A DNA stretch of 64,000 nucleotides from Escherichia phage vB_EcoM_DalCa (NC_054908.1); one strand, 5' to 3'. Positions 4,273 through 60,389 are shown, counted from the stretch's first letter. Notes: generated from the sequence alone by a model not told the origin. Translations and numbers: made by a program.

Positions 4273-4910
4273 TGAATGAACCCCAATTACTAATTGAAAC
4301 TTGGGGTCAACCTGGCGAAATTATTGATGGCGTACCAATGCTTGAATCTCATGATGGAAAAGACTTAGGTTTAAAACCGGGTTTATACATCGAAGGAATA
4401 TTCATGCAAGCGGAAGTCGTCAATAGAAATAAACGTCTTTATCCAAAACGTATATTAGAAAAAGCGGTAAAAGACTATATTAATGAGCAAGTTTTAACTA
4501 AACAAGCTCTCGGAGAATTAAATCATCCTCCACGCGCTAATGTTGACCCGATGCAAGCCGCTATCATTATAGAAGATATGTGGTGGAAAGGAAATGACGT
4601 ATACGGACGAGCTCGTGTTATTGAAGGTGACCACGGTCCTGGAGATAAATTAGCAGCTAATATTCGTGCCGGATGGATTCCAGGAGTTTCTTCTCGTGGA
4701 TTAGGTTCATTGACTGACACAAATAAAGGTTATCGTATCGTAAACGAAGGATTCAAATTAACTGTAGGTGTTGATGCAGTATGGGGTCCAAGTGCTCCAG
4801 ATGCATGGGTAACTCCTAAGGAAATTACCGAATCACAGACGGCGGAAGCCGATACAAGTGCCGATGACGCCTATATGGCTCTCGCAGAGGCCATGAAAAA
4901 AGCGTTATAA
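4272..4910 (+). CDS. 21: Prohead core protease gp21
   Basis: 212 aa, same length as T4 gp21; order 68-21-22. Confidence 0.9.
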   Translation: MNEPQLLIETWGQPGEIIDGVPMLESHDGKDLGLKPGLYIEGIFMQAEVVNRNKRLYPKRILEKAVKDYINEQVLTKQALGELNHPPRANVDPMQAAIIIEDMWWKGNDVYGRARVIEGDHGPGDKLAANIRAGWIPGVSSRGLGSLTDTNKGYRIVNEGFKLTVGVDAVWGPSAPDAWVTPKEITESQTAEADTSADDAYMALAEAMKKAL

Positions 4911-7319: not shown

Positions 7320-7333
7320 TCTTTGACGATTTA

Positions 7334-7366
7334 AGGGACCTTCGGGTCCCTTTAGTTGTTTTTATG
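7334..7366 (+). terminator. Rho-independent terminator after gene 23
   Basis: AGGGACC-ttcg-GGTCCCT followed by a T-rich run. Confidence 0.7.
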
Positions 7367-7367
7367 G

Positions 7368-7375
7368 TATAAATA
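7368..7375 (+). promoter_or_regulatory. Late promoter box TATAAATA for gene 24
   Basis: Exact TATAAATA between the gene 23 terminator and gene 24. Confidence 0.6.
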
Positions 7376-7402
7376 AATCATATAAACTGAAAGGAAAGCG
7401 CA

Positions 7403-8871: not shown

Positions 8872-9720
8872 TCAAAAATCCTTCGGACCAATTTCACCAA
8901 TTTTAGAAATAACGTTATTTACTCGGTTCAGTGTAACGTAGCAAGCTAAAATTCCCACCAATTTGTTATCAGCTTCTGATAGTTCAACTTTAGCTTTAAT
9001 AGGCTTATCAGACTTTTTCTTTTCACTAAATTTGGAATTCTTGCATTTGATGGCTACACGATTTCCATTATGAAGCCAAGAAGGACAACAAGGTTTCAAT
9101 ACATATCCTTCAGCGGTAAATACTTCGCCTTTGGCTTCAGCTTTCCAAACACATTTGTTAGCGTCAACTAATCCTGCATGGTCTACTGTAAAATTATAAT
9201 CTTGGACGACAGAATCTAAATCATTTGGCAATTTAATAAGCTCTTCAAATTTACCGCGACCTAAAAGTGGAGCCATTTTAAATTTAAATGTATTACAAAA
9301 TGATTCCATCATATAATCATCGACATAAGTCACATCACCACTTTCTGTAGTGACAATAATGTCAAATACATAAAAATCTTTATCGCCATAATCGACATTC
9401 TTCTGAATGCCAGGTCCAGCGAATTCGCCAAAGACTTGATAAGATACAACCGCTGAGGTTTCCATAATATCTTGTACTGCTTTAATAGAATCTTCGTAAT
9501 TCTTTAGAATAATTTCATACCCAAAGAAATCTTCAGCAGGAAGAATTGGTCCAGTACGTTTAGCGCAAGTTACTTTATCACGCTCAATAATCAATGAGAA
9601 ATTTGTGCCGTGAATCTTTTCACGAGCTACCCACTCCCCACCAGTCAATCCCAAGCTATAAAGTTTTTCAATAAATTTAGAGTTGTAATGATTTTCAAGA
9701 CTGCTATACTTTTTAAACAT
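8872..9720 (-). CDS. rnlB: RNA ligase 2 (Rnl2), N-terminal 282 codons ending at an in-frame TGA
   Basis: Motif I lysine at residue 35 (EKIHGTN); position downstream of gene 24 region; ORF stops at TGA 8872-8874. Confidence 0.85.
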
Positions 9721-9729
9721 AATTAATCC

Positions 9730-10008
9730 TCAAAATGTAATTTCTAACCAATCACCATCACGCTGATCACTATTGACTTTAAAGCTGAATCCTTCTTTTC
9801 TCAGCCAATCACCAATTTCTTCAGTAATCAATTTATCACGAGCAATACAATAATAACTAAAATGTGTTTTACCTTGTTCAGCTGCTTTATTAGCAAGTTC
9901 CGAAAAATCTTTAATAAAACATTCTAGTTTAAACTGTTTACTTTTAAGTGCTTTTTCTCGCAATTGATTAGCAAAAGATTCATTTTCATAAAGATCATAC
10001 TGTTCCAT
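9730..10008 (-). CDS. Hypothetical protein (T4 24.2 position)
   Basis: 92 aa ORF in the minus-strand early block between rnlB and hoc. Confidence 0.6.
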   Translation of the reverse strand: MEQYDLYENESFANQLREKALKSKQFKLECFIKDFSELANKAAEQGKTHFSYYCIARDKLITEEIGDWLRKEGFSFKVNSDQRDGDWLEITF

Positions 10009-12426: not shown

Positions 12427-12455
12427 TAGATATATTTATTACATGGTATTTAGAC

Positions 12456-13967
12456 ATGACTGACATTAAAGTACATTTTTATGATTTTAGTCACGTGAGA
12501 ATTGATTGTGAAGAAAGTACATTTCATGAACTCCGTGATTTCTTTAGCTTTGAAGCTGATGGGTATCGTTTTAATCCGAAGTACAGATATGGCCACTGGG
12601 ATGGACGAATCCGTCTGTTAGATTATAATCGTCTTCTTCCATTCGGCTTAGTCGGGCAAATTAAAAAGTTCTGCGATAACTTTGGCTATAAAGCCTGGAT
12701 TGACCCACAGATTAACGAAAAAGAAGAATTATCAAGAAAAGATTTTGATGAATGGCTTTCTAAATTAGAAATCTATTCAGGAAATAAAAGAATTGAACCA
12801 CATTGGTATCAAAAAGATGCAGTGTTCGAAGGATTAGTTAATCGTCGTAGAATTCTTAATCTTCCAACATCCGCAGGTAAATCTTTAATTCAAGCTCTGC
12901 TTGCTCGGTATTATTTGGAAAATTATGAAGGCAAAATTCTTATTATTGTTCCAACAACTGCTCTGACAACTCAGATGGCTGATGACTTTGTTGACTATCG
13001 TTTATTCAGTCATGCAATGATAAAGAAAATCGGTGGTGGAGCATCAAAAGATGATAAATATAAAAATGATGCACCAGTCGTTGTTGGTACATGGCAAACT
13101 GTAGTAAAACAACCGAAAGAATGGTTCTCACAGTTTGGAATGATGATGAATGATGAATGCCATCTTGCTACAGGAAAAAGTATTTCATCTATCATATCAG
13201 GTTTAAATAACTGCATGTTCAAATTTGGTCTATCTGGTTCATTACGTGATGGCAAAGCCAATATCATGCAGTATGTTGGAATGTTTGGTGAAATATTTAA
13301 GCCAGTAACGACTTCTAAGTTAATGGAAGATGGACAAGTAACTGAGCTAAAAATTAATAGTATTTTTCTTCGCTATCCCGATGAGTTCACTACTAAATTA
13401 AAGGGAAAAACTTATCAAGAAGAAATAAAAATTATTACGGGGCTTAGTAAAAGAAATAAATGGATCGCTAAATTGGCTATTAAGCTTGCACAAAAAGATG
13501 AAAACGCTTTTGTCATGTTTAAACATGTATCACATGGTAAAGCTATTTTCGATTTAATTAAAAATGAATACGATAAAGTTTATTACGTATCAGGGGAAGT
13601 TGATACCGAAACCCGCAACGTAATGAAAACCTTAGCTGAAAATGGTAAAGGAATAATTATAGTAGCTAGTTATGGTGTATTTTCTACTGGTATTTCAGTT
13701 AAAAATCTGCATCACGTTGTTTTAGCGCACGGTGTTAAATCAAAAATCATTGTATTACAAACAATCGGTCGTGTATTACGTAAGCATGGTTCTAAAACAA
13801 TCGCAACAGTCTGGGACCTCATAGATGACTGTGGTGTCAAGCCAAAATCTGCTAATACTAAAAAGAAATATGTTCACTTGAACTATCTTTTAAAACACGG
13901 CATTGATCGTATTCAGCGCTACGCAGATGAAAAATTTAATTACGTAATGAAAACAGTTAATTTATAA
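12456..13967 (+). CDS. uvsW: UvsW DNA/RNA helicase
   Basis: 503 aa; Walker A-like PTSAGKS, DECH box; TATAAATA about 30 bp upstream. Confidence 0.9.
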   Translation: MTDIKVHFYDFSHVRIDCEESTFHELRDFFSFEADGYRFNPKYRYGHWDGRIRLLDYNRLLPFGLVGQIKKFCDNFGYKAWIDPQINEKEELSRKDFDEWLSKLEIYSGNKRIEPHWYQKDAVFEGLVNRRRILNLPTSAGKSLIQALLARYYLENYEGKILIIVPTTALTTQMADDFVDYRLFSHAMIKKIGGGASKDDKYKNDAPVVVGTWQTVVKQPKEWFSQFGMMMNDECHLATGKSISSIISGLNNCMFKFGLSGSLRDGKANIMQYVGMFGEIFKPVTTSKLMEDGQVTELKINSIFLRYPDEFTTKLKGKTYQEEIKIITGLSKRNKWIAKLAIKLAQKDENAFVMFKHVSHGKAIFDLIKNEYDKVYYVSGEVDTETRNVMKTLAENGKGIIIVASYGVFSTGISVKNLHHVVLAHGVKSKIIVLQTIGRVLRKHGSKTIATVWDLIDDCGVKPKSANTKKKYVHLNYLLKHGIDRIQRYADEKFNYVMKTVNL

Positions 13968-22873: not shown

Positions 22874-24931
22874 CTACATTTTGAACTTTTTAGACATTCC
22901 GTTAATGTTAACCAAAGAAGCTAAGATTTGAGAAACTTCATTTTCCTCTTCTTTTGATTCTTCTACAAGGAATTGATTAAATCCAGCCATTGGACGAACT
23001 TCACCAGTTTCCATTAGATGGTCTCCATCATATACTGATTCTTCTAATTGTTCAGAAGGAGGAACGATTGTACCTTCGATTAGATACTTGTTATAAGCAG
23101 TTTCTTTCATAAAGTACGTACTTACTTTATTAATCTTCAGTAAAATTCCACGTGGTAGAATAACTTCAGCTTCTGATGGAAATCCTGATAAATGACCCGG
23201 AACGATAACTTTGATTCGCTCAGCTCCTTTAATTACCATACCCACGCTAGTTTCAGCATCTTCATTAGCATATGTAGAATGACTACCCATATGCATCAAA
23301 TCTTCTGCATCAACAGAACCTTCTCCTTCGCCAGAAAATACTGCACCGGAATCATCTAGAGCCATATAGTTTTTACCATGCTCACCGAAGATATTTGGTT
23401 TAAGTGATGTCGATACGAAGTTCTTGAAATAGAACATTTTATTTTCAATATTGTGACGCAAAGTTTTAAAGGTAACTTCTTGTCCACGGTAAAGTGTAGT
23501 TCCTGGAGGAAGAACTGAACCTTTAGCGAATGCAGAATCCAGCGTCTCAATATGTTTAATAGCTCGTTCCATATATTCTTCACGGGTAGAATCTGGTTTA
23601 CCCAAAAGGAACGAGTTCATTTCAACATATGAATCTGCACAATAATCTTCAATTACGTCAGATTCAGCCTGAGTTAATCCTTTTGGAGTTACTTCAGTAC
23701 TTGCATATTCATATGCCTGAGCGGCAGATTCATTAATCAATTTATAAATGCCATTCATGACAAATTGAATAATAGCTGTCTTTTCATCTGGCGTAGCTTT
23801 AGAACCTTTAACTAAATCATTGACAATTTTCTTAATAACATCAAAACTATTAGAAATATTAATATCAGCAAGATCGCTTAAAATTTTATCAGTTTTATAA
23901 TCAAAGAATTCTTTATTCTTTAAATATTCTTGAGAACCTTGATATGTTATATCGCTCTGCAGCTTGATAGATGGATCGCGTAAACGTGCATGGGCCAATG
24001 CAATATGATTTCGGAAGTTTTCTAGTTCATAATCGTTAGATTTAAAACGAGAAGCACTTCTCATACCACCGATAGCTCCTTTGCTAAAGTTTGAACCAAT
24101 CTGAATAACGCCAGAGTTCATCGGACCTTCTGCTTTATATACCGGAACTTTAGATTCAAACTCTTGATATTTCTTGGCAGCAAAGCTATCACCCTGAAGT
24201 GAAGCATCAACAGTAGAATATTGAGCTTGTGCTGCTAATCGACGACTTATTTTAGTTTTCTGAATAACAGCTTGGTCCGTGCGCTTATCATTTTCTAAAG
24301 CAATAGAAGCAGCAACAGCGACAGCTTTAGGAACAGCATTTCCTGTTTTAACGTCTACATAAACATCACCGACCTTTGATTCAACTTTTGTGAATAACTC
24401 AGTTGAAATAGGAGGTACACCTGGAATGTCTTCTAAATTGGCATTTTTACGGTAAACCATAATATATGCATATTTCTTATCATAGTCCCAGATTTCCTTT
24501 AAAAGAACATATCGACCTGCTCCTTTAGTACGTACTAAACGGTCAGCAATAACTTGCATTTGACGAGCTGCGCCATTTGTTTTACTTTTTAGTACGCGGA
24601 ATAGGCATGCGTCGATTTTATACTGTTTCATTGTTTGAAGAGCAGTATCAAAAACGGCATTAATGACACCAATTGGATTTCCACCCAAGTTTCTAAGTTT
24701 AACCAGTGATAGTTTCTCATTAACACCTATCATTACGATATGCATCATTTTATCGCCTGGCTTAACGTTTTTATTCGTATCACCACCAGAGGTGTATGTA
24801 CAAAATCTAAATCCAGGAAGCACGCTTTCTTCGCCGGCTTGAATAGCAAAAATTTGTGGTATTTTATGCTTAGGATTTAAGTTAACAACCGGCGCCGAAG
24901 CGCCGTCAAATAATTCTGTAATAAGTTCCAT
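22874..24931 (-). CDS. Alt-like mono-ADP-ribosyltransferase paralogue (685 aa)
   Basis: N-terminus MELITELFD... near-identical to the neighbouring Alt; R-S-E motifs (TLYRGQ, FVSTSL, EAEVILPRG). Confidence 0.8.
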   Translation of the reverse strand: MELITELFDGASAPVVNLNPKHKIPQIFAIQAGEESVLPGFRFCTYTSGGDTNKNVKPGDKMMHIVMIGVNEKLSLVKLRNLGGNPIGVINAVFDTALQTMKQYKIDACLFRVLKSKTNGAARQMQVIADRLVRTKGAGRYVLLKEIWDYDKKYAYIMVYRKNANLEDIPGVPPISTELFTKVESKVGDVYVDVKTGNAVPKAVAVAASIALENDKRTDQAVIQKTKISRRLAAQAQYSTVDASLQGDSFAAKKYQEFESKVPVYKAEGPMNSGVIQIGSNFSKGAIGGMRSASRFKSNDYELENFRNHIALAHARLRDPSIKLQSDITYQGSQEYLKNKEFFDYKTDKILSDLADINISNSFDVIKKIVNDLVKGSKATPDEKTAIIQFVMNGIYKLINESAAQAYEYASTEVTPKGLTQAESDVIEDYCADSYVEMNSFLLGKPDSTREEYMERAIKHIETLDSAFAKGSVLPPGTTLYRGQEVTFKTLRHNIENKMFYFKNFVSTSLKPNIFGEHGKNYMALDDSGAVFSGEGEGSVDAEDLMHMGSHSTYANEDAETSVGMVIKGAERIKVIVPGHLSGFPSEAEVILPRGILLKINKVSTYFMKETAYNKYLIEGTIVPPSEQLEESVYDGDHLMETGEVRPMAGFNQFLVEESKEEENEVSQILASLVNINGMSKKFKM

Positions 24932-34531: not shown

Positions 34532-34764
34532 AGTACGCCATACACCCTTTGTGCTTCAACTAATCCATCAAAATCCAATTTGAGATGTGTTATTTGGTCA
34601 CCATCACCTGGATTCACAATTACTAATACCGAACGAGGAGTTTCGGTAATAACACGAACCGACGTTTCAGGAAATCGTTCAGAAACCTTATTTACCAATT
34701 CTTGAGCAAATAGTTTAACTTTTTCTTGGAATTCTTTAACAGTAATTGGTTTTTCGCTTAGCAT
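34528..34764 (-). CDS. Hypothetical protein (cd.2 position)
   Basis: 78 aa ORF, coupled. Confidence 0.55.
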   Translation of the reverse strand: MLSEKPITVKEFQEKVKLFAQELVNKVSERFPETSVRVITETPRSVLVIVNPGDGDQITHLKLDFDGLVEAQRVYGVL

Positions 34765-35285
34765 GTTGATCCTAGCTCCTTACTTTCAACATTTTTAACT
34801 AATTTGACAGAAACTAATTCAGCATCTTGGGTAATCATTACCGGACCTTCTTCATGCTCTTCAAGATATTCTAGAGCTTTCTTTTTAGCTTCTTCCTTCG
34901 TATCAGTTTGAGCATAGATATAGAACATACAACCAGTAATACCTACTACTTTCCACTTAATTTCTTTATCAGTTTTAATTTCAAATTTACTTACAGAATC
35001 ATCTTTTTGAACTTCTTCGAAAAAAGAATATTCTAACATATAAGCAATTGAAAATAACGGGCTAACTTTATAGGATTCACCCATTACATCAACAGCTTTA
35101 TACCAACAATCATCAATTTCACGTTTAATGCTAATAACATTTTTCGCAGGATCTATTTTTACTTTAAATGAATTTTCCCCAATAAACTGGGCAATTCGTT
35201 TATTAGCCCCGCAAGTTTCATTAAAAATATCTTTATATCCAGCTTTAAAGCGATAAACCTTATCTTCTTCAAACCATTCGCTCAT
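34758..35285 (-). CDS. Hypothetical protein (cd.3 position)
   Basis: 175 aa ORF with early promoter-like element upstream. Confidence 0.6.
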   Translation of the reverse strand: MSEWFEEDKVYRFKAGYKDIFNETCGANKRIAQFIGENSFKVKIDPAKNVISIKREIDDCWYKAVDVMGESYKVSPLFSIAYMLEYSFFEEVQKDDSVSKFEIKTDKEIKWKVVGITGCMFYIYAQTDTKEEAKKKALEYLEEHEEGPVMITQDAELVSVKLVKNVESKELGSTC

Positions 35286-36016: not shown

Positions 36017-37216
<1,200 letters not shown>

Positions 37217-37220
<4 letters not shown>

Positions 37221-38651: not shown

Positions 38652-40239
<1,588 letters not shown>

Positions 40240-40266
40240 AATAAAATGGGCCTTGCGGCCCACTCC

Positions 40267-41445
40267 TTAAAAGTATTTTTTAAAACTCATCATAACTTTA
40301 TCATCAACATCATTATCAATCTGTGCAACAAGATAAGATGACAGTTCTACTTCTTGCGGCGCGGATTGAACATTATCAGAATTAAGGTATTCACGAATCC
40401 AAGGATATGGATGTTTAACCGGAGCATCGGTAATCGGGCATGGAAGACCACACTGTTTCATACGAGATACAGTTAAGTAATCAATAAAGCTCCACATGCT
40501 ATTTGTATTTAATCCAGGAACATCGCCATCTTTAAATAAATGAACTGCCCAATCTTTTTCTTGGCGGTTAACTTCCATGAAAATATCAACTGCTTCTTGT
40601 TCACACTCTTGAGCAATTTTAACCCATTGATCGCCATCAGTACCAGATTGAAGTTGACGAATAATATATTGTGTACCTTTAAGATGAAGCTGCTCATCAC
40701 GTGCAATGAACTTCATAATCTTGGCATTACCTTCCATGATTTCCATGTTTTTATGGAAGTTAAAGGTACACGCAAAGGATACATAAAAACGAATAGCTTC
40801 CAGAGCATTGATAACGTGCAGACAGAGATAAAGCGACTTCATCAGGTCTCGTTTACATTCTTCCAAATGAGTGAGACTGTTTGAATATGCTTCTAAATCA
40901 TATTCATTTTCAGCAAAATAACTAAAGTTTTCTTTGGCGTTTTCCCAAATACGTGTCTTGTCCAGAACATCATCATAATAACGACCAATAGATTCAGCAC
41001 GTTTCATGATAGCTTTATCTAATACAATCTCATCAAATACCTTTGACGGATCAGTATAAAGATTTCGCATAATATGAGTGTATGAACGACTGTGAATAGT
41101 TTCACTAAAAGTCCATGTAGCAACCCATGTATCAAGGCTTGGGTCTGAAATCAATGACATAAGTACAGCAGACGGTGCACGACCCTGAATGCTATCCAGA
41201 AGTGATTGATACTTCAGATTATTAGTAAAAATATTCTGCTGATATTGAGGAAGCTTATTAAACTGTGCAGCATCCATCATTAAGTTTACTTCTTCAGGAC
41301 GCCAGAAAAATGACAACTGCTTTTCGGTTAAATCTTCAAAAACTTTATGACGTTGAATATCATAACGCGCAATACCAAGACCTGAACCAAAAAACATAGG
41401 TTCTTTTAAAACATCAACTGGATTTGTATTAAAAACTGTGCTCAT
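40267..41445 (-). CDS. nrdB: Ribonucleotide reductase small subunit NrdB, uninterrupted
   Basis: 392 aa continuous ORF; di-iron ligand-like E..H motifs; order denA-nrdB-nrdA. Confidence 0.9.
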   Translation of the reverse strand: MSTVFNTNPVDVLKEPMFFGSGLGIARYDIQRHKVFEDLTEKQLSFFWRPEEVNLMMDAAQFNKLPQYQQNIFTNNLKYQSLLDSIQGRAPSAVLMSLISDPSLDTWVATWTFSETIHSRSYTHIMRNLYTDPSKVFDEIVLDKAIMKRAESIGRYYDDVLDKTRIWENAKENFSYFAENEYDLEAYSNSLTHLEECKRDLMKSLYLCLHVINALEAIRFYVSFACTFNFHKNMEIMEGNAKIMKFIARDEQLHLKGTQYIIRQLQSGTDGDQWVKIAQECEQEAVDIFMEVNRQEKDWAVHLFKDGDVPGLNTNSMWSFIDYLTVSRMKQCGLPCPITDAPVKHPYPWIREYLNSDNVQSAPQEVELSSYLVAQIDNDVDDKVMMSFKKYF

Positions 41446-41496
41446 AAATTTTCCGCTTAGTTAATAGTTGGTGACTCGTCCGTGAGTCAAATTATA

Positions 41497-43761
41497 TCAT
41501 AATTTACAGGATGAACAATCTTCAGCTTTTGGAGTTTCTATTTCATAATCATCAGTACCAGAACCGTCACGGGTATTATGATAATAGAAATTTTTTCCGC
41601 CAAAATACCAGAAATACAAAAGGTCATCAATCATTATTGACATTGGAACCTTGCCTTTAGGGAAGATTTGGGGGTCATAGTATGTATTCGCCGAAGCTGA
41701 TTGACAAACCCATTTCAGCATAATAGCTACCTGCGTAAGATAAGGTTTATTACCTTTCTTAGCTAATTTCCATGTATAATCATAAAGGTCTATGTTATGC
41801 TCAATATTGGGCACGACTTGATTAAAGGAGCCCTCTTTTGATTCTTTAACAGAGACTGGTCCACGTGGAGGCTCGATACCGTTTGTACTGTTAGAAACTT
41901 GGGAAGATGACTCACATGGCATAAGTGCTGATAGTGTGCTATTACGGATGCCAAAGAGCTTAAGGTCTTCCCGCAGCGACGACCAGTCACAAACGTATTT
42001 TGGAGCTGCGATTTGGTCAATCTTTTTATTGTACCAGTCGATAGGTAATTCGCCTCGAGACCAACGAGTGTCTGAATAATATTCACAAGGTCCTTTTTCT
42101 TTGGCGAGTTTAATGGATGCTTTAATAAGTCCATACTGTAATCTCTCAAATAGTTCATGTGTTAAATCGTTAGCATCTTCATAAGAAGCAAAGTTACTTG
42201 CCAACCAAGCTGCATAGTTAGTAACACCTACACCGAGGTTACGACGCTTTTTAGCTTTTTCTGCTTCAGGAACTGGATATCCTTGGTAATCCAAAAGATT
42301 ATCAAGAGCACGAACCTGGACTTCTGCCAATTCATTAATTTTATCTTGGTCTTGCCAGTCAAAATTATCCAGTACGAATGCAGAGAGAGTACACAATCCA
42401 ATTTCAGCATCAGGACTATTCACATCATTTGTTGGAATAGCAATTTCACAGCACAAGTTACTCTGACGAATAGGTGCCTTTTCACGAATAAACGGAGTAT
42501 AGTTATTCGTATTATCAATGAACTGTACATAAATCCTTGCTGTTCCTGAACGTTCAGTCATGAGCAATTCAAATAGTTCACGGGCTTTAATACGCTTTTT
42601 ACGAATATTAGGGTCTTTTTCTGCTGCTTCGTATAATTCACGGAAACGGTCTTGGTCTTTAAAATAAGAATAATACAGCTCTCCACCCATTTCATGTGGA
42701 CTGAACAAAGTAATGTAATCGTTCTTTCCGAATCGTTCCATCATCAAATCATTCAGTTGAACACCATAATCCATATGACGAATGCGGTTTTCTTCTACGC
42801 CTTTGTTATTTTTCAAAACGAGAAGATTTTCAACTTCCAAATGCCAAATAGGATAATAAGCAGTAGCAGCGCCGCCACGAATTCCGCCCTGTGAGCATGA
42901 TTTAACAGCAGTCTGAAAATGTTTCCAAAAAGGAATAACACCAGTATGACGCACTTCACCCATGCCAATCTTAGAACCTTCGGCACGAATCATACCAACG
43001 TTAATACCAATTCCAGCACGTTTGGAGATATATTCAACAATTGAAGCAGAAGCCTTATTAATAGACTTTAATGAATCACCTGCCTCAATAACAACGCATG
43101 AACTAAACTGCCGAGTTGGAGTACGGCAACCAGCCATAATAGGAGTTGGTAATGAAATCTGTCGAGTAGATACTGCTTCATAAAAACGAATAACATGTTT
43201 TAATCTATCAACAGGTTCATCTTGATGCAATGCCATTCCAATAGTCATAAATGCAAACTGAGGAGTTTCATAAATTTGACCAGTGGTTTTATCTTTAACT
43301 AGATATTTTTCTTTTAATTGCATCGCCCCGGAATAAGTAAATTCCATATCCCGTTCGTGCTTAATTTTTGATTCTAAAAATGTAATTTCTTCTGCTGAAT
43401 ATTTTGACAACAATTCAGGGTCATATTTACCTTCATTTACACAGTAAGAAATATGGTCAATAAATGAACGTGGTTCATACTGCCCATAAACATGCTTACG
43501 AAGAGCGAACATTAGACAACGTGCAGCTACATATTGATAATCAGGCTCTTCAACCGAAATAGAATTCGCAGCGGCCTTAATGACAATAGTCTGAATATCA
43601 TCAGTTGTCATTCCATCACGGAGATAAGATTTAATATTTTCATATAATTCATAAGGATCTACTGATGTTCCCTCAGCTGCCCAAGATAAAACTTTAATAA
43701 TTTTTTGTGGGTCAAAGCTCTGAGAAACACCACTACTTTTGATAACATTAATTAATTGCAT
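41497..43761 (-). CDS. nrdA: Ribonucleotide reductase large subunit NrdA
   Basis: 754 aa; C-terminal CSSCKL redox cysteines. Confidence 0.9.
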   Translation of the reverse strand: MQLINVIKSSGVSQSFDPQKIIKVLSWAAEGTSVDPYELYENIKSYLRDGMTTDDIQTIVIKAAANSISVEEPDYQYVAARCLMFALRKHVYGQYEPRSFIDHISYCVNEGKYDPELLSKYSAEEITFLESKIKHERDMEFTYSGAMQLKEKYLVKDKTTGQIYETPQFAFMTIGMALHQDEPVDRLKHVIRFYEAVSTRQISLPTPIMAGCRTPTRQFSSCVVIEAGDSLKSINKASASIVEYISKRAGIGINVGMIRAEGSKIGMGEVRHTGVIPFWKHFQTAVKSCSQGGIRGGAATAYYPIWHLEVENLLVLKNNKGVEENRIRHMDYGVQLNDLMMERFGKNDYITLFSPHEMGGELYYSYFKDQDRFRELYEAAEKDPNIRKKRIKARELFELLMTERSGTARIYVQFIDNTNNYTPFIREKAPIRQSNLCCEIAIPTNDVNSPDAEIGLCTLSAFVLDNFDWQDQDKINELAEVQVRALDNLLDYQGYPVPEAEKAKKRRNLGVGVTNYAAWLASNFASYEDANDLTHELFERLQYGLIKASIKLAKEKGPCEYYSDTRWSRGELPIDWYNKKIDQIAAPKYVCDWSSLREDLKLFGIRNSTLSALMPCESSSQVSNSTNGIEPPRGPVSVKESKEGSFNQVVPNIEHNIDLYDYTWKLAKKGNKPYLTQVAIMLKWVCQSASANTYYDPQIFPKGKVPMSIMIDDLLYFWYFGGKNFYYHNTRDGSGTDDYEIETPKAEDCSSCKL

Positions 43762-44078
43762 AAGTCCTCAACTTGAAAATCGTCTTTAAACAATCGGTTA
43801 ACTATATGAGCTATTATATCACCATGACACGGCTTTGGTTTACATGTGCATCCTAGCCTCATTCCACGTAAAGGCTCTAAATGTGCTTTAGTTATTTCTC
43901 CGGATTTAATTCGACGTATAAAATCTTTTTTGAATAATTCAATGGCAACCTCCCGGCTGCCAGCATCTTTACCGACGTAATTTCCCCAAAATGTACCACG
44001 GTGAATATTAACATCAAAGTCGGATTTGTATTTATTCACTACCCGACATAGACGGCCCGCGCGGTGATAATTCGGCAT
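43752..44078 (-). CDS. Hypothetical Cys-containing protein between td and nrdA
   Basis: 108 aa; [12 protein letters not shown] cluster; overlaps the nrdA start by about 10 nt. Confidence 0.55.
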
Positions 44079-44295
44079 ATTGTTTTTCCGTTAAAACAGT
44101 AATATCGTAGTAACAGTCAGAAGAAGTTTTAACTGTGGAAATTTTATTATCAAAATACTCACGAGTCATTTTATGAGTATAATATTTTTTGCCATAAATG
44201 ATAATAGGCTGATTTGGTCCTGGAACTTCTAGCTCACTTGGATTAGGAAGTGTAAAAAGAACAACGTCAGAAGTATCTTTAAATCGTAAAATCAT
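44032..44295 (-). CDS. Hypothetical small protein between td and nrdA
   Basis: 87 aa ORF overlapping the td stop by 4 nt. Confidence 0.5.
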
Positions 44296-45152
44296 ATTGC
44301 CATTTTCCCTTTAATTGCTGGATGCGATTCATAATTTTCAAGGATAAAATCTTTCGGTTTCATGTATTCAGTTAACCAGTAAAGCTGTGTTTCGGTGTCA
44401 CAATTTCCAAACTCTATAGGCCAATCAATTTTAAGTTCACATAGTTCTTTAGGCTCACGACGTAAAATTTCTTTACATTGCTCAGTATGATTCATATAGA
44501 TGTGAGTATTACCACCAGAAAATATCAAATCTCCTGGGATAAGATTACACATCTTAGCCACAATATGCGTCAAGGCAGCGTACGAGGCAATGTTGAATGG
44601 CAATCCCAAGAAAACATCTACACTTCTTTGGTACCATTGTAAATCAAGATAACCATTACGCACATTAAACTGATAGAACATATGACAGGGCGGTAATGCC
44701 ATTTGATTGATTTCAGCTGGATTCCATGCTGAAACGATTTGACGTCGATCAGTTGGTAATTTTTTAATACGATCAATAGTTTCAACTAATTGATCCACAC
44801 CGCCGAAATCACGCCATTGTTTACCGTATATAGGACCAAGTTCACCACTATGATATCCTAGGTCTTTAGCCTGGTTTTCATAGTTATCGTCCCAAATAGT
44901 TTTACCTTGAATAAGACTACCATGTGTGCGAAGACGTAAATCATTAACATTGGTAGAACCGGAAATAAACCATAGAAGCTCAGCAATGCATGCATTCCAC
45001 GCAAGCTTCTTAGTTGTTACCGCAGGAAAACCTTTAGTTAAATCCCAACGTAATTTAGTACCGAACAAAGCAATTGTTCCTGTGCCTGTTCGGTCATCGG
45101 TTTCATAGCCATTTTCAAAAATGTCTTTAATTAAATCTTGGTATTGTTTCAT
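44292..45152 (-). CDS. td: Thymidylate synthase, uninterrupted
   Basis: 286 aa continuous ORF; active-site region [10 protein letters not shown]. Confidence 0.95.
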
Positions 45153-45197
45153 TTAGTACCTTATATAAATTATAATACATTTTATGAAGCTAAATAA

Positions 45198-45545
45198 TCA
45201 ATACGGTTTAGCATCAAATTTTCTCTCAATTTCAGGCGTGAAATATAATTCTTTACCGCGTTTGGAAAAGCGACCAATAATATGATAATTATTCTCATCA
45301 AACGTGATATTACCAATATCCATAGCTTTCAACCAAATATCGATATTTCTATCCAGCTTTATGTCAAAATTCCAATACGGTGAACTATTACCGAAAATAC
45401 TGCAAGCGGATTCAGTGAAACAACTGCTATAAATCTTGTCTTTAGGAACTACTAATTGATAGACACCTTTAATAAACTGAGGACCCTGCCACTTTGGCTG
45501 TTTCGTGTCTTTTTCTAATAGAATAGGGTAATAATTAAAATTCAT
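45198..45545 (-). CDS. Hypothetical protein located between frd and td
   Basis: 115 aa ORF flanked by short spacers; no recognisable nuclease motif. Confidence 0.6.
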   Translation of the reverse strand: MNFNYYPILLEKDTKQPKWQGPQFIKGVYQLVVPKDKIYSSCFTESACSIFGNSSPYWNFDIKLDRNIDIWLKAMDIGNITFDENNYHIIGRFSKRGKELYFTPEIERKFDAKPY

Positions 45546-45564
45546 ATTTCCGCCACGTGTTATT

Positions 45565-46394
<830 letters not shown>

Positions 46395-46404
46395 ATTATT
46401 TTCC

Positions 46405-46647
46405 TTAAACAGACTTTTTCACAATTTTCCAATCAGCTTTAAACTGCTCGACGTCAGAATGGTAAATCCAGAATCCTGCGCTTTCACCGTCTTCATAAAG
46501 CGGACACCCATCACATTCATCTTCCCATCCCATGCCACGTAAAAGGTGTTCAGCTTTTTCAACAAGTTCAGAATCTTTACCGATGATATTAAAATACCAT
46601 TTACCTCTAACTTCTGAATCTTTGATGCTCTGGCGTTGTAATCTCAT
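46405..46647 (-). CDS. Hypothetical protein (frd.x block)
   Basis: 80 aa ORF with TAAGGAGAATAAA RBS. Confidence 0.55.
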   Translation of the reverse strand: MRLQRQSIKDSEVRGKWYFNIIGKDSELVEKAEHLLRGMGWEDECDGCPLYEDGESAGFWIYHSDVEQFKADWKIVKKSV

Positions 46648-47567: not shown

Positions 47568-48476
47568 TTAAAGGTCATTCAAAAGGTCATCTAGGTCCGT
47601 GTCATCAGCACTAGATGAACTGCCAGAGCTTGAGCTCATAAAATCATCTTCAGTTTTTGTATTGAAGTCATCAACATTGAATGCATCCAAATCATCAGCA
47701 ACTTTATCAGCTTTCTTAGCAGCAGTTGCAGCAGCACCGCCCATCACAGCAGTTCCCATAACTTGACCGAATTTAGTGCTCAGTTCTTCAAACGATTTGA
47801 ATTTATCTTTAGAAGTCATTTCAGAAAGGTCAACCATTTGTTCGAACAGTTCTTTCTGGAAAGATTCATCGTCAATGTTTGGAATCGCAGATTGATTCAG
47901 GAATTTAGATTCGTCGTAGTTACTAAATCCAGAAACCTGTTTAACTTTCAGTACAAAGTTAGCACCTTCCCACGGACAAGTTACATCAACCGGAGTTTCA
48001 CCCATTTCAACATCAACTGCAATCATTGCGTTGATTTTATCCCAGATTTTCTTACCGAAACGGTATTTAAATACTTTACCTTCATTTTCTGGAGCAGCTG
48101 GGTCTTTTACTACAAGAATGTTAGCCCAGTAAGAAGTTTTACGTTTAACAAGACCGTACTCTTTATTGTCAGTGTTATACAAATCATTTTTACTGATGTA
48201 CTGACATACTGGACAAGAATCGTAATCACCGTGGGTAGATGAACAGTTTTCAATATACCATTTACCATTTTTCTTGAAACCGTGATTTACAAGAATTGCG
48301 AATGGTGCTTGTTCATCATTTTTAGACGGAAGAAAACGAATTACTGCTTGACCGTTACCCGCATTGTCGAGTTTCAGTTTCCACTCGCCTTTATCTTCAG
48401 AAGAAAAACCACCTTTATTTCCAGCCAGTTTAGCCATTTGTGCAGCGAGTTCAGCAGTAGATTTACGTTTAAACAT
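47568..48476 (-). CDS. 32: Single-stranded DNA-binding protein gp32
   Basis: 302 aa; acidic Ser/Asp-rich C-terminus; pseudoknot-like leader upstream; strong terminator downstream. Confidence 0.95.
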
Positions 48477-48508: not shown

Positions 48509-48543
48509 GTGCTATGACGATGTATGACCTCATAGCTGGTCAG
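48509..48543 (-). promoter_or_regulatory. Gene 32 mRNA leader pseudoknot-like element (translational operator)
   Basis: Minus strand UGACC-AGCUAUGA-GGUCA-uacaucg-UCAUAGC: two interleaved stems, followed by an A/U-rich stretch to the ATG. Confidence 0.55.
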
Positions 48544-48550
48544 TGAGGTA

Positions 48551-48576
48551 ATTATAATCTATTTATAATAAGCAAT
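48551..48576 (-). promoter_or_regulatory. Gene 32 promoter cluster (MotA-box-like ATTGCTTAT, TATAAATA and TATAAT)
   Basis: Minus strand reads ATTGCTTATTATAAATAGATTATAAT upstream of the gene 32 leader. Confidence 0.5.
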
Positions 48577-56556: not shown

Positions 56557-59523
56557 ATGGCTACTTTAAAACAAATACAATTTAAAAGAAGTAAAACTGC
56601 AGGTCAACGTCCTGCTGCTTCAGTATTAGCCGAAGGTGAATTGGCTATAAACTTAAAAGATAAAACAATTTTCACAAAAGATGACTCAGGTAGTGTTATA
56701 GAATTAGGTTTAAAATATGGAGGAACAATTGATGGTTCTTTAACTGTTAATGGAAACATAATTGGAAATTTAACAGGTAACGCTGCAACTGCAACGAAAT
56801 TAAAAACAGCACGAAAAATTAATGGTATATCCTTTGATGGGTCAAAAGATATCACGCTAACTCCATCTGACATAAATGTCAATAGCACAACGTTTATAAA
56901 AAATAACGGCGAATTACCTGTTGATGCTAATTTAGATGAGTATGGGCCTGTTGAAGAATATCTTGGAGTTTGGTCGAAAGCAACTTCAACCAACGCTCAA
57001 CCAGCAAATAAATTTCCAGAAGAAAATGCTGTAGGTGTTCTAGAAGTATTTGTGGCCGGTCAATTTGCTGGTACTCAGAGATATACAACTAGATACGGAA
57101 ATGTTTATATTCGTTCCTTGACTGCTACATGGAACGGAGTAAACGGTCCGTGGAGTGCGTGGCGAAATATTCAATCTGGTACTCGTCCACTGTCAACAAC
57201 GATTGATCTTAATGATCTAGGAGGCGCTGAACACCTTGGTTTGTGGCGAAATAGTTCAAATTCCATTGCTACCTTTGACAGAAATTTCCCAGAAGAAGGA
57301 TCGTCCGCTCAAGGACTTTTAGAAGTATATGAAGGTGGAAACTATTCTCGCACACAGAGATATACGACCAGATTTGGTGTTGTTTATACTCGTTGTCTTG
57401 CTGCTGCGTGGGATGCTTCTGCGCCTAAATGGGGACCTTGGCAACAAGTCGGTAATGTCACACCGGCGACTTTCTATGACGGAGATCTGAATGATTTTAA
57501 AACTCCTGGGTTATATAATATTTTAGGCACTGATGCCGTTATTAACTGTCCTACCGGTGAAGGTTTACCAGCCGTTATTGTTGGTTTGCTGGAAGTTAAA
57601 CAGCGTGCTTCTGGTGGTGCTATTTTCCAAAAATTTACTACTGCCGGAACGGGTGCAACTACTCGCGATCGTATTTTTGAGCGTGCATATACTGGTGGTG
57701 TGTGGGGTGCATGGAACGAAGTATATACATCTTATTCCCTGCCAATTACTTTGGGTATGGGTGGTATTAAAACTCAATTAGCGGAGTTAGATTGGCAAAC
57801 CTTTGATTTTGTCCCTGGTAGTATGTTTAGTGTTCCTTTGAACAAAATAAAGAATATGCCAGCAAATATGGATTGGGGCACGATTGATGGAAACCTGGTT
57901 ATGTTTTCCGTTGGTCCTAGCGAACACACTAGCACAGGACGTACTGTTCAGATTTGGCGCGGCACCGTATCCCAGACAAACTACCGTTATTTTGTCGTTC
58001 GTGTGTTCGGTAATTCTGGAAATAGAACTTGCACAGTTCGTCGTGTTGTTCTTGAAGACGGATCACATACTTGGACTGCTAAACAAGATTTTAATGGCGC
58101 AGTTAACTTTAACTCTACTGTTAACCTTAATAACACTACCACATTTAAAACAGAAGTTAAATTTCGCTCATTGAATGCATTCCGTATGTATGGCGGAAAA
58201 TTTGGTACATTTTTACGTAATGATGGAGAGAGTCTTTATATTCTTTCCACCGACGAAGATGATCAAGATGGAAACTTTAATACAAATAGACCTTTCCGTT
58301 ATGAATTAAGAACTGGTGATGTTACTTTGGGTGGTGCTAGTGGTGCTAACGTTTTAAAATTAAAACGTGATTCTCTCACCGCATTTTTTGGCGGTGATAT
58401 TAACATTAAAGGCATGATGACTTTTGACGCCGGACGTTTAGGATCACGAGATTATTTTAAATTTAACCATTGGGGTGATAGTAATAATGCGCGTGATAAC
58501 ATTATTCAGTTAGAAGACAGCAAAGGCGCTCATTTTTCCACTGAACGTACTTTAGCGACTGGTGCAATTAAGACTAAATTTTTTGGTGAAATTGAATCCG
58601 ATGGTAAATTGGTTATTAAACGTCCGGGTGATTCTATTGTATTATCAACAACTGCTAGTAATTCTTTGCATATTCGCGGTGATATAGACGGGACTGGTAA
58701 CTGGTATATTGGTAAAGGTGGTGCTGATAATGGATTAGCGTTCTATAGTTATGCTACTAATGCTGGTGTATACATTACAAACGCAGGAGATATCTCGCTA
58801 AGTCCAAAGGGTGCCGAAATGGCTCAGGTCAATAACGTTCGATTATATGTTCATGGTGAACGTTGGACCGCTAGTCAACCAGGTGATTGGGGCAGTCAGT
58901 GGCAAGTGGAAGCGCCAATATTCGTCGATCATGGTTATGTTGGACCAGATAGCTATTATCCAATTATTAAAGGAAGAAGTGTAATCACCAATCAAGGGTT
59001 TGTAACTGCCGTCGATCTTGGTATTCGTCGTGTCCCTAACAATTGGGGGCAAGCAATTATTCGTGTTGGATCTGCAGAGGCATCGCCAGCGGCTGGACAC
59101 CCTAACGCGGTATTTGAATTTCATTACGACGGTACTTTCTATTCTCCTGGTAATGGTAACTTTAACGATGTGTATATTCGTTCCGATGGTCGTCTTAAGA
59201 TTAATAAAAAAGAGCTAGAAAACGGAGCACTTGAAAAAGTATGCCGACTGAAAGTTTATACATACGATAAGGTTAAGTCTATTAAAGATCGTAGTGTTAT
59301 TAAACGTGAAGTTGGTATTATTGCTCAGGATCTTGAAAAAGAATTACCGGAAGCTGTGTCTAAAGTTGAAGTTGATGGATCTGATGTTCTGACAATTTCT
59401 AACTCCGCTGTGAATGCTCTTTTAATTAAGGCTATCCAAGAAATGAGCGAAGAAATTAAAGAATTAAAAACGCCTTTCTTCACTAAAATTGCTCGCAAAA
59501 TTAGTAAATATTTTAAATTCTAA
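56557..59523 (+). CDS. 37: Long tail fibre distal subunit gp37 with C-terminal self-cleaving chaperone-like domain
   Basis: 988 aa; N-terminus [19 protein letters not shown] typical of fibre proteins; SDGRLK motif about 113 aa from the C-terminus. Confidence 0.9.
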
Positions 59524-59529
59524 CAACAA

Positions 59530-59548
59530 GGGGGCAACGCCCCCTTTG
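59530..59548 (+). terminator. Hairpin after gene 37 (GGGGGC-aac-GCCCCC)
   Basis: 6 bp GC stem followed by TTTGG; just upstream of the gene 38 RBS. Confidence 0.5.
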
Positions 59549-59558
59549 GAGATAAATT

Positions 59559-60359
59559 ATGGCAGTAGTTGGTGTTCCTGGTTGGATTGGTAGTTCATCC
59601 GTAAATGAAACAGGACAACGATGGATGAGTCAAGCGGCTGGTCAATTAAGATTGGGTGTTCCTTGCTGGATGAGTCAATTTGCAGGTCGCTCACGAGAAA
59701 TTATTCATACACTTGGAGCAGACCATAACTTCAATGGTCAATGGTTCCGAGATAGATGTTTTGAGGCCGGTAGTGCACCTATAGTGTTTAATATTACAGG
59801 TGATTTAGTATCATATTCTAAAGATGTTCCTTTATTCTTCATGTACGGGGATACGCCTAATGAATATGTTGTTCTTAATATTCATGGTGGTGTTCATATG
59901 TGGGGTCGTGGTGGTAATGGTGGATACACTCACTCGGGAGGCGACGGTAACGGTACACAAGGCGGTCATGTTATTCAAAATGATATCGGTGGACGGCTTC
60001 GTATTTGGAACTACGGTGTTATAGCTGCTGGCGGTGGCGGCGGTGGTGGTATTGCATATCGTCCACACTCAGGGGCAAACTGGCAAGATATCGGTGGCGG
60101 TGGTGGTCGACCTTTCGGTGGCGCTGGCGGTGGCGGTTATTCCGGTGGTGCTGCTTCGTATGAAGGTCCGGGTGGTGGTTATGACTATGGTAACGCACAC
60201 TCCGGCGCAGGTGGTAATGCTGGTGCTGCTGGTCAGAATGCATGGTCTGACGGCGGTAAAGTTCTTAAAGTTGGTGTTGGTGGTGCGTCTGGTCATGCAG
60301 TGTTTGGGTCTTCTCCAACTTGGGGTGCTGTTGGAACAATTTACGGACCAAGAGTATAA
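59559..60359 (+). CDS. 38: Receptor-recognising adhesin gp38, T2-type with glycine-rich motifs
   Basis: 266 aa; several poly-Gly stretches (GGGGGGG, GGGGG, GGAGGGG) separated by variable segments. Confidence 0.85.
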
Positions 60360-60389
60360 TTTGAATAAATATCCTTAAAAGGAGGGTCT

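Follow-up and report, generated by a model that had tools for sequence, protein, structure and literature searches.

Uninterrupted td and nrdB genes in a T2-type nucleotide-metabolism locus of Escherichia phage vB_EcoM_DalCa

The occurrence of introns in the td and nrdB genes of T-even phages is variable, as was reported in 1987–1989 (Pedersen-Lane & Belfort; Quirk et al.; both as cited in PMC2988022). The nrdB intron interrupts the gene of T4 but not that of T2 (PMC2790892), intron-encoded endonucleases are recorded only for T4, T6, RB3 and LZ2, with none in T2, RB14, RB15, RB18, RB26, RB32, RB51/70 and RB69 (PMC2993671, Table 5), and with respect to homing-endonuclease content “T4 remains the outlier” (PMC2988022). 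The present analysis concerns td, which encodes thymidylate synthase, and nrdB, which encodes the class Ia ribonucleotide reductase beta subunit, in a 64,000-nucleotide (nt) stretch of Escherichia phage vB_EcoM_DalCa (NC_054908.1), referred to here as the window, from the start of which all coordinates are counted. The window is Tequatrovirus (T4-like coliphage) DNA, 97–98% identical to several genomes of this genus (G29, G4500, UTI-E2, WilhelmHis) and identical to none. An original prediction, made from the sequence alone, had pointed to the absence of the T4 introns with an implied surprise that is misplaced, since phages of this group usually lack introns, with T4 as the outlier (PMC2988022; PMC2993671, Table 5). 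Intron-less td and nrdB are a normal, long-documented T-even condition, which involves no new mechanism.

The exon junctions of T4 (NC_000866) were located with blastn, together with a test of splice boundaries for restoration of the reading frame. Exon 1 of T4 td ends with ...CTTGGGT at nt 549 and is followed by a 1017-nt intron, which ends with ...ATAATG, and by exon 2, which begins with CTACCG. In T4 nrdB, exon 1 ends with ...TTTGCGT at nt 664, the 598-nt intron ends with ...CATACG and exon 2 begins with GTACCT. Both T4 introns, which belong to group I, had been said to carry a homing endonuclease open reading frame (ORF), which is true of the td intron with its GIY-YIG enzyme I-TevI, but the ORF in nrdB is a defective, truncated relic of the HNH enzyme I-TevIII, 98 amino acids (aa) in length (T4 annotation; PMC1865063). 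T4 further contains a ~700-nt insertion between nrdA and nrdB, comprising nrdB.1 and the HNH gene mobE. Two other genomes serve for comparison: that of T2 (AP018813), the classic intron-less T-even recipient, and that of WilhelmHis (Bas35, MZ501113; Tequatrovirus gee4498), where an intron-less td is accompanied by an nrdB intron of RB3 type, 1091 nt long and containing an endonuclease ORF of 229 aa.

In the window, td (44292–45152, minus strand, as are all features of this locus) and nrdB (40267–41445) each consist of one continuous ORF, of 286 and 392 aa respectively, as had been predicted; the ORF list confirms both, with no internal stop. Td matches PF00303 (Thymidylat_synt) with residues 2–286, covering profile positions 1–266 of 266 (E=7e-96), and has the catalytic-cysteine motif PPCH at residue 154, which identifies it as a thymidylate synthase. 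NrdB matches PF00268 (Ribonuc_red_sm, E=5e-37), which places it among the class Ia small subunits, and W48, the conserved radical-transfer tryptophan near the N-terminus, is found in the context FFWRPEE; this N-terminal tryptophan has been described as essential (PMC2790892). As both genes are uninterrupted, no RNA splicing is needed for thymidylate synthase or for the ribonucleotide reductase small subunit, and their annotation in DalCa needs no exon joining.

The positions where T4 carries its introns can be located exactly. By blastn, window td nt 1–548 and 553–719 match T4 td nt 1–548 and 1570–1736, while between window nrdB nt 1–676 and 677–1179 there are an extra 598 nt in T4 and an extra 1091 nt in WilhelmHis. 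The T4 td intron position thus corresponds to the boundary of window positions 44604 and 44603, and that of the T4 nrdB intron to the boundary of 40770 and 40769. In the alignment to T4, T2 and WilhelmHis the window has zero extra bases at either td 549/550 or nrdB 676/677. The proteins likewise show no gap at the T4 exon junctions, where Td FLG/LPF and NrdB FAC/TFNF align gap-free. NrdB has 392 aa in the window, T2 and WilhelmHis and 388 aa in T4, a difference of four residues that is due to the length of a variable cassette and not to the junction. No evidence contradicting the absence of introns from td and nrdB was found.

A screen with Rfam group I intron models had been suggested as a check, and its value depends on how it is run. 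At the gathering threshold nothing is found in the window, but the same scan also misses the intron-bearing loci of T4 and WilhelmHis; because it misses the T4 introns, this negative is uninformative. A permissive scan with RF00028 was used instead, with the T4 locus as positive control. In this mode the match to the T4 td intron reaches 40.3 bits (E=9e-8) and that to the T4 nrdB intron 35.7 bits (E=2e-6), neither attaining the RF00028 gathering score of 50; the matches lie at 9596–9826 and 4509–4749 of the retrieved T4 locus sequence. The permissive scan gives no RF00028 match in 39500–46500 at E<=10 or in the whole window at E<=1, and since the T4 introns are detected in the same mode, this is support, separate from the alignment, for the lack of an intron core. 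It is nevertheless the alignment, not the Rfam scan, that provides the real evidence for intron absence. Default Rfam annotation misses the canonical T4 introns, so that an Rfam-negative result cannot certify a phage gene as intron-less, and phage-intron screens that come out negative should be run at a permissive threshold and with a control.

The locus has a T2-type architecture free of mobile elements. It aligns to T2 in one 6.4-kb piece with 92.5% identity, and the two share gene order, the lengths of td (861 nt) and nrdB (1179 nt), a 348-nt ORF between frd and td, the absence of introns and of mobE, and a 51-nt nrdA–nrdB spacer with four substitutions between them. With no mobE between nrdA and nrdB and with AAG at nrdB codon 42, the window belongs to the T2-type nrd loci. 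The likeness to T2 does not extend to two parts of the locus: T2 td is of another allele lineage, with 83% identity to the window in the exon 1 part and ~72–73% in the exon 2 part, and the T2 variant of the nrdB cassette is 40–52% identical to that of the window over nt 481–600. In alignment to T4 the locus breaks into five pieces, at a 115-aa ORF that T4 lacks, at the td intron, at nrdB.1 with mobE and at the nrdB intron. The exons are orthologous, however, with a Td of 286 aa in both phages and a near-identical NrdB outside the cassette, and nrdA, nrdA.1, nrdA.2 and denA have 94–98% DNA identity to those of T4. WilhelmHis is closer still, with 97.3–97.7% identity over the aligned locus and 99.8% for the td allele, and differs by its nrdB intron.

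Rough record counts, from a redundant collection with many T4 laboratory stocks, indicate that having neither intron is common. At >=80% identity the locus itself has matches in ~560 records. Of the introns, that of T4 td has matches in 260 phage records, in 197 cases over nearly its full length, and the RB3-type nrdB intron in 129. Among the best 40 of the ~560 locus matches, 38 are Tequatrovirus records that are co-linear with the window in one piece.

The absence of introns is matched by an absence of homing endonucleases. The original prediction had found no GIY-YIG or HNH ORF inside td or nrdB, and the Pfam and tblastn searches agree with it. Eight nested alternative-frame ORFs (40–114 aa) inside the two genes have no Pfam match at E<=1. 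Searches of the whole window by tblastn gave nothing below E=0.3 with T4 I-TevI, MobE, SegD, SegE, SegG and NrdB.1 as queries, nor with I-TevIII, taken both as the T4 relic and as the full-length WilhelmHis form. No recognisable homing endonuclease gene is present anywhere in the 64 kb. The sole nearby GIY-YIG protein is DenA, or endonuclease II (39829–40263; PF01541, phrog_1111), which is encoded directly downstream of nrdB, outside both genes, and is 99.3% identical to T4 DenA; it is a nuclease that degrades cytosine-containing host DNA and no homing endonuclease. All six insertions that T4 carries in the 68-kb interval of T4 96–164 kb (segD, segE, the nrdB intron, nrdB.1 with mobE, the td intron and segG) are precisely absent. 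At the positions of the free-standing GIY-YIG genes segD, segE and segG (~7330–7391, 12442–12462 and 48539–48575) the window has 60, 19 and 35 nt, as opposed to 789, 635 and 623 nt in T4.

Three positions of the locus that are occupied in T4, those of the td intron, of the nrdB intron and of mobE with nrdB.1, have the appearance of vacant homing sites, a reading supported by the sequences around them. The td insertion site lies within an equivalent of the 38-bp I-TevI target at 44593–44630, reading CAAAGAAGTGTAGATGTTTTCTTGGGA/TTGCCATTCAA, with the stroke at the insertion point. The sequence recognised by I-TevI is ~38 bp long, with the cuts at -23/-25 (PMC2988022). The window target keeps the CNNNG motif as CAAAG, compared with CAACG in T4, and differs from T4 at 10 of the 38 positions, while T2 differs at 6 of 38. 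The nrdB insertion site and the stretch equivalent to I-TevIII's homing site lie at 40755–40799, reading AAGCTATTCGTTTTTATGTATCCTTTGCGT/GTACCTTTAACTTCC, and this 45-nt context has a single mismatch, at -8, to the spliced exon context of T4 and WilhelmHis.

The third position is the 51-nt spacer between nrdA and nrdB (41446–41496), where T4 has nrdB.1 and mobE. The corresponding target lies inside nrdB: MobE-dependent nicks have been mapped at nt 122–126 of T2 nrdB, within codon 42, for which every phage without mobE has AAG (Wilson & Edgell, PMC2790892). The equivalent nucleotides of the window are at 41320–41324, and the surrounding nick region (nrdB nt 97–156) is identical to T2 at 60 of 60 positions, with AAG in codon 42, in contrast to T4, which has CGG there and many other changes around the MobE target.

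The best explanation, which we regard as very nearly certain, is that the locus is a T2-type block free of mobile elements, with td and nrdB intact and uninterrupted, and that the positions occupied in T4 are present here as vacant homing sites. In a mixed infection with a relative carrying an intron or mobE, these sites would be cut or nicked, presumably at -23/-25 in td by I-TevI, at -14/-16 in nrdB by I-TevIII and at nrdB nt 122–126 by MobE. With the donor genome as template, repair would then introduce the element together with a short flanking stretch of donor DNA. The phage is accordingly predicted to act as a recipient, not as a donor, in homing and marker-exclusion crosses. For all three enzymes, the step from an empty site to a cleavable one is one that we infer from the sequence. 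Three points weigh against the broader form of this explanation. The ten differences from the T4 target leave cleavage of the td site by I-TevI as a presumption; the chimeric td gene of phage Lutter, described below, attests to past invasion of this type of allele and not to present-day cutting of the window sequence; and nrdD, the third intron gene of T4, lies outside the window, so that intron absence covers the window and not the whole phage.

The td gene forms a local island of divergence. It has 83% identity in the exon 1 part and 72% in the exon 2 part to both T2 and T4, which are 95.8% alike in td, while the genes flanking td are 95–98% identical. Most codon differences are synonymous (76, as opposed to 19 non-synonymous, in the first 720 nt). 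The C-terminal part is strongly divergent, with 45–60% identity over nt 721–837. The window shares this allele with WilhelmHis (99.6–100% by part), and td of Lutter (NC_054924) belongs to the same allele lineage but contains a 1016-nt intron with I-TevI. Of 188 informative sites, nearly all are window-type in Lutter, except for a T4-type run at td nt ~501–558, which starts shortly upstream of the I-TevI cut and ends shortly beyond the insertion site. This tract of ~55 bp has the form of the co-conversion footprint that would be expected of double-strand-break repair in homing.

Chimeric queries, in which the T4 intron end was joined to a window-type exon, served as a test for a refractory allele. 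The td intron joined to window-type exon 2 was found at >=99% identity in 24 records, and several of these phages (Lutter, PTE-Eco15 and the Pu-Krd-SF series) are matched by the exon 1 chimera too. Given Lutter and the 24 intron-bearing records, the td gene of the window is therefore the vacant form of an allele that was invaded in a sister lineage. The window td itself carries no T4-type conversion tract, being window-type up to the insertion site on both sides.

A vacant site may have been never occupied or emptied. An ancestor may have had the td intron, the nrdB intron or both and lost them precisely, for example through recombination with an intron-less allele. Such secondary loss is unlikely, although it survives better than the other alternatives. 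Intron-bearing and intron-less alleles do coexist in very close relatives, as seen in WilhelmHis, which has the nrdB intron in a locus 97.3–97.7% identical to that of the window and an almost identical td; in addition, nrdB exon 2 is 96–98% alike regardless of intron status, so that the nrdB flanks are of no help in telling the two histories apart. Against this history stands the absence from the window td of any part of the T4-type tract of Lutter, a weak test, as recombination with an empty allele would erase the tract. The T2-type spacer and the AAG codon 42 also fit phages without mobE (PMC2790892). The missing td tract mildly favours a site that was never occupied over one that was emptied.

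The second divergent segment of the locus is a hypervariable cassette in nrdB (nt 481–640; 40806–40965), delimited by alignment of the window, T2, T4 and WilhelmHis. This 160-nt segment, which encodes NrdB residues ~161–213, shows 35–55% identity among the four phages, compared with 95–100% for its flanks, and it ends ~36 nt upstream of the point where the nrdB intron is inserted. Only 14 records (LZ7, EC121, wV7, AugustSocin and others) contain the variant of the window at >=99% identity, and because other genomes than these carriers come closest in the flanking DNA, the cassette seems to be mobile as a module and looks like an exchanged one. A jump in nrdB identity at the insertion site, from 83% in exon 1 to 97% in exon 2, was considered as a homing scar and rejected; the low value for exon 1 is explained by the 160-nt cassette and by T4-specific changes around the MobE site, and exon 2 has 96–98% identity among all four phages, whether or not they carry the intron. 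It is improbable that the divergence of td and of the nrdB cassette, both next to vacant sites, is the product of an arms race with homing endonucleases as opposed to neutral mosaicism. If it were, the two islands would represent either target variants with partial resistance or scars of recombination, and would contribute to keeping the lineage intron-free.

Somewhat more improbable still is that td has stayed intron-less through escape, its altered homing site being refractory to I-TevI. The position of td as an island of divergence amid flanking genes of 95–98% identity would suit such an allele, as would the differences from the T4 target, five of which are in or beside the cleavage motif and spacer. 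However, the CNNNG motif is kept, and the intron is found in this very type of allele (in 24 records when judged by exon 2, and by exon 1 as well for several of them), with the minimal conversion tract of Lutter centred on the I-TevI cut site. I-TevI is also said, in work attributed to Bryk and co-workers in 1993, to tolerate many target substitutions. On the strength of the chimeric queries and of the Lutter tract, the divergent td as an escape variant is largely rejected.

That the introns are missing merely through mis-assembly, or through sequencing of spliced transcripts, has nothing found in its support and can be dismissed, as the 64-kb window is genomic DNA that is co-linear throughout and includes intergenic regions as well as spacers with promoters, T2 and dozens of genomes sequenced independently have the same uninterrupted arrangement, and the free-standing, non-spliced elements mobE, segD, segE and segG are absent too.

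Both genes are part of a T4-type nucleotide-metabolism block, which occupies ~39.8–48.5 kb of the window on the minus strand in the order gene 32, small ORFs, frd, the 115-aa ORF, td, nrdA.2, nrdA.1, nrdA, the 51-nt spacer, nrdB, denA and rnlA. Gene 32 lies at 47568–48476, and frd (45565–46149; PF00186) encodes a dihydrofolate reductase of 194 aa. The small genes nrdA.2 (44032–44295; DUF5496) and nrdA.1 (43752–44078; DUF4326) are present likewise in T4 and T2. The gene nrdA (41497–43761; PF02867, PF00317, PF03477) encodes the 754-aa alpha subunit of ribonucleotide reductase and has 96–98% DNA identity to T2, T4 and WilhelmHis.

The 115-aa ORF between frd and td (45198–45545; phrog_1928, function unknown) is annotated in WilhelmHis as a “putative homing endonuclease”. 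A role as a free-standing homing endonuclease was rejected, since the ORF has no Pfam or PDB match and its PHROG is of unknown function. It occupies the same position between frd and td in 553 phage records, among them T2, RB14, RB7 and, with ~31% identity, distantly related T4-like phages of Klebsiella. T4 is without it, and its frd and td overlap. The 115-aa ORF is an old resident gene that T4 lacks.

Four further insertions relative to T4, all on the minus strand, are specific to the window, and none of the four qualifies as an endonuclease gene. The largest (22874–24931) is a full-length second Alt-like ADP-ribosyltransferase of 685 aa adjoining alt (PF03496, E=6e-20); at that position T4 shows nothing but two short remnant ORFs, alt.-1 and alt.-2, attributed in the T4 annotation to an old duplication of the beginning of alt. 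The other three encode proteins of unknown function that are not found at the corresponding T4 positions and show no resemblance to endonucleases: a 175-aa ORF between cd.2 and cd.3 (34758–35285; phrog_3710), a 100-aa ORF between pseT and pseT.1 (36918–37220; phrog_2364) and an 81-aa ORF upstream of frd (46149–46394; phrog_3183). At the DNA level, the distal long-tail-fibre region (~56711–60365, equivalent to gene 37/38) shows no alignment to T4, in keeping with the mosaicism known for the adhesin region of T-even phages.

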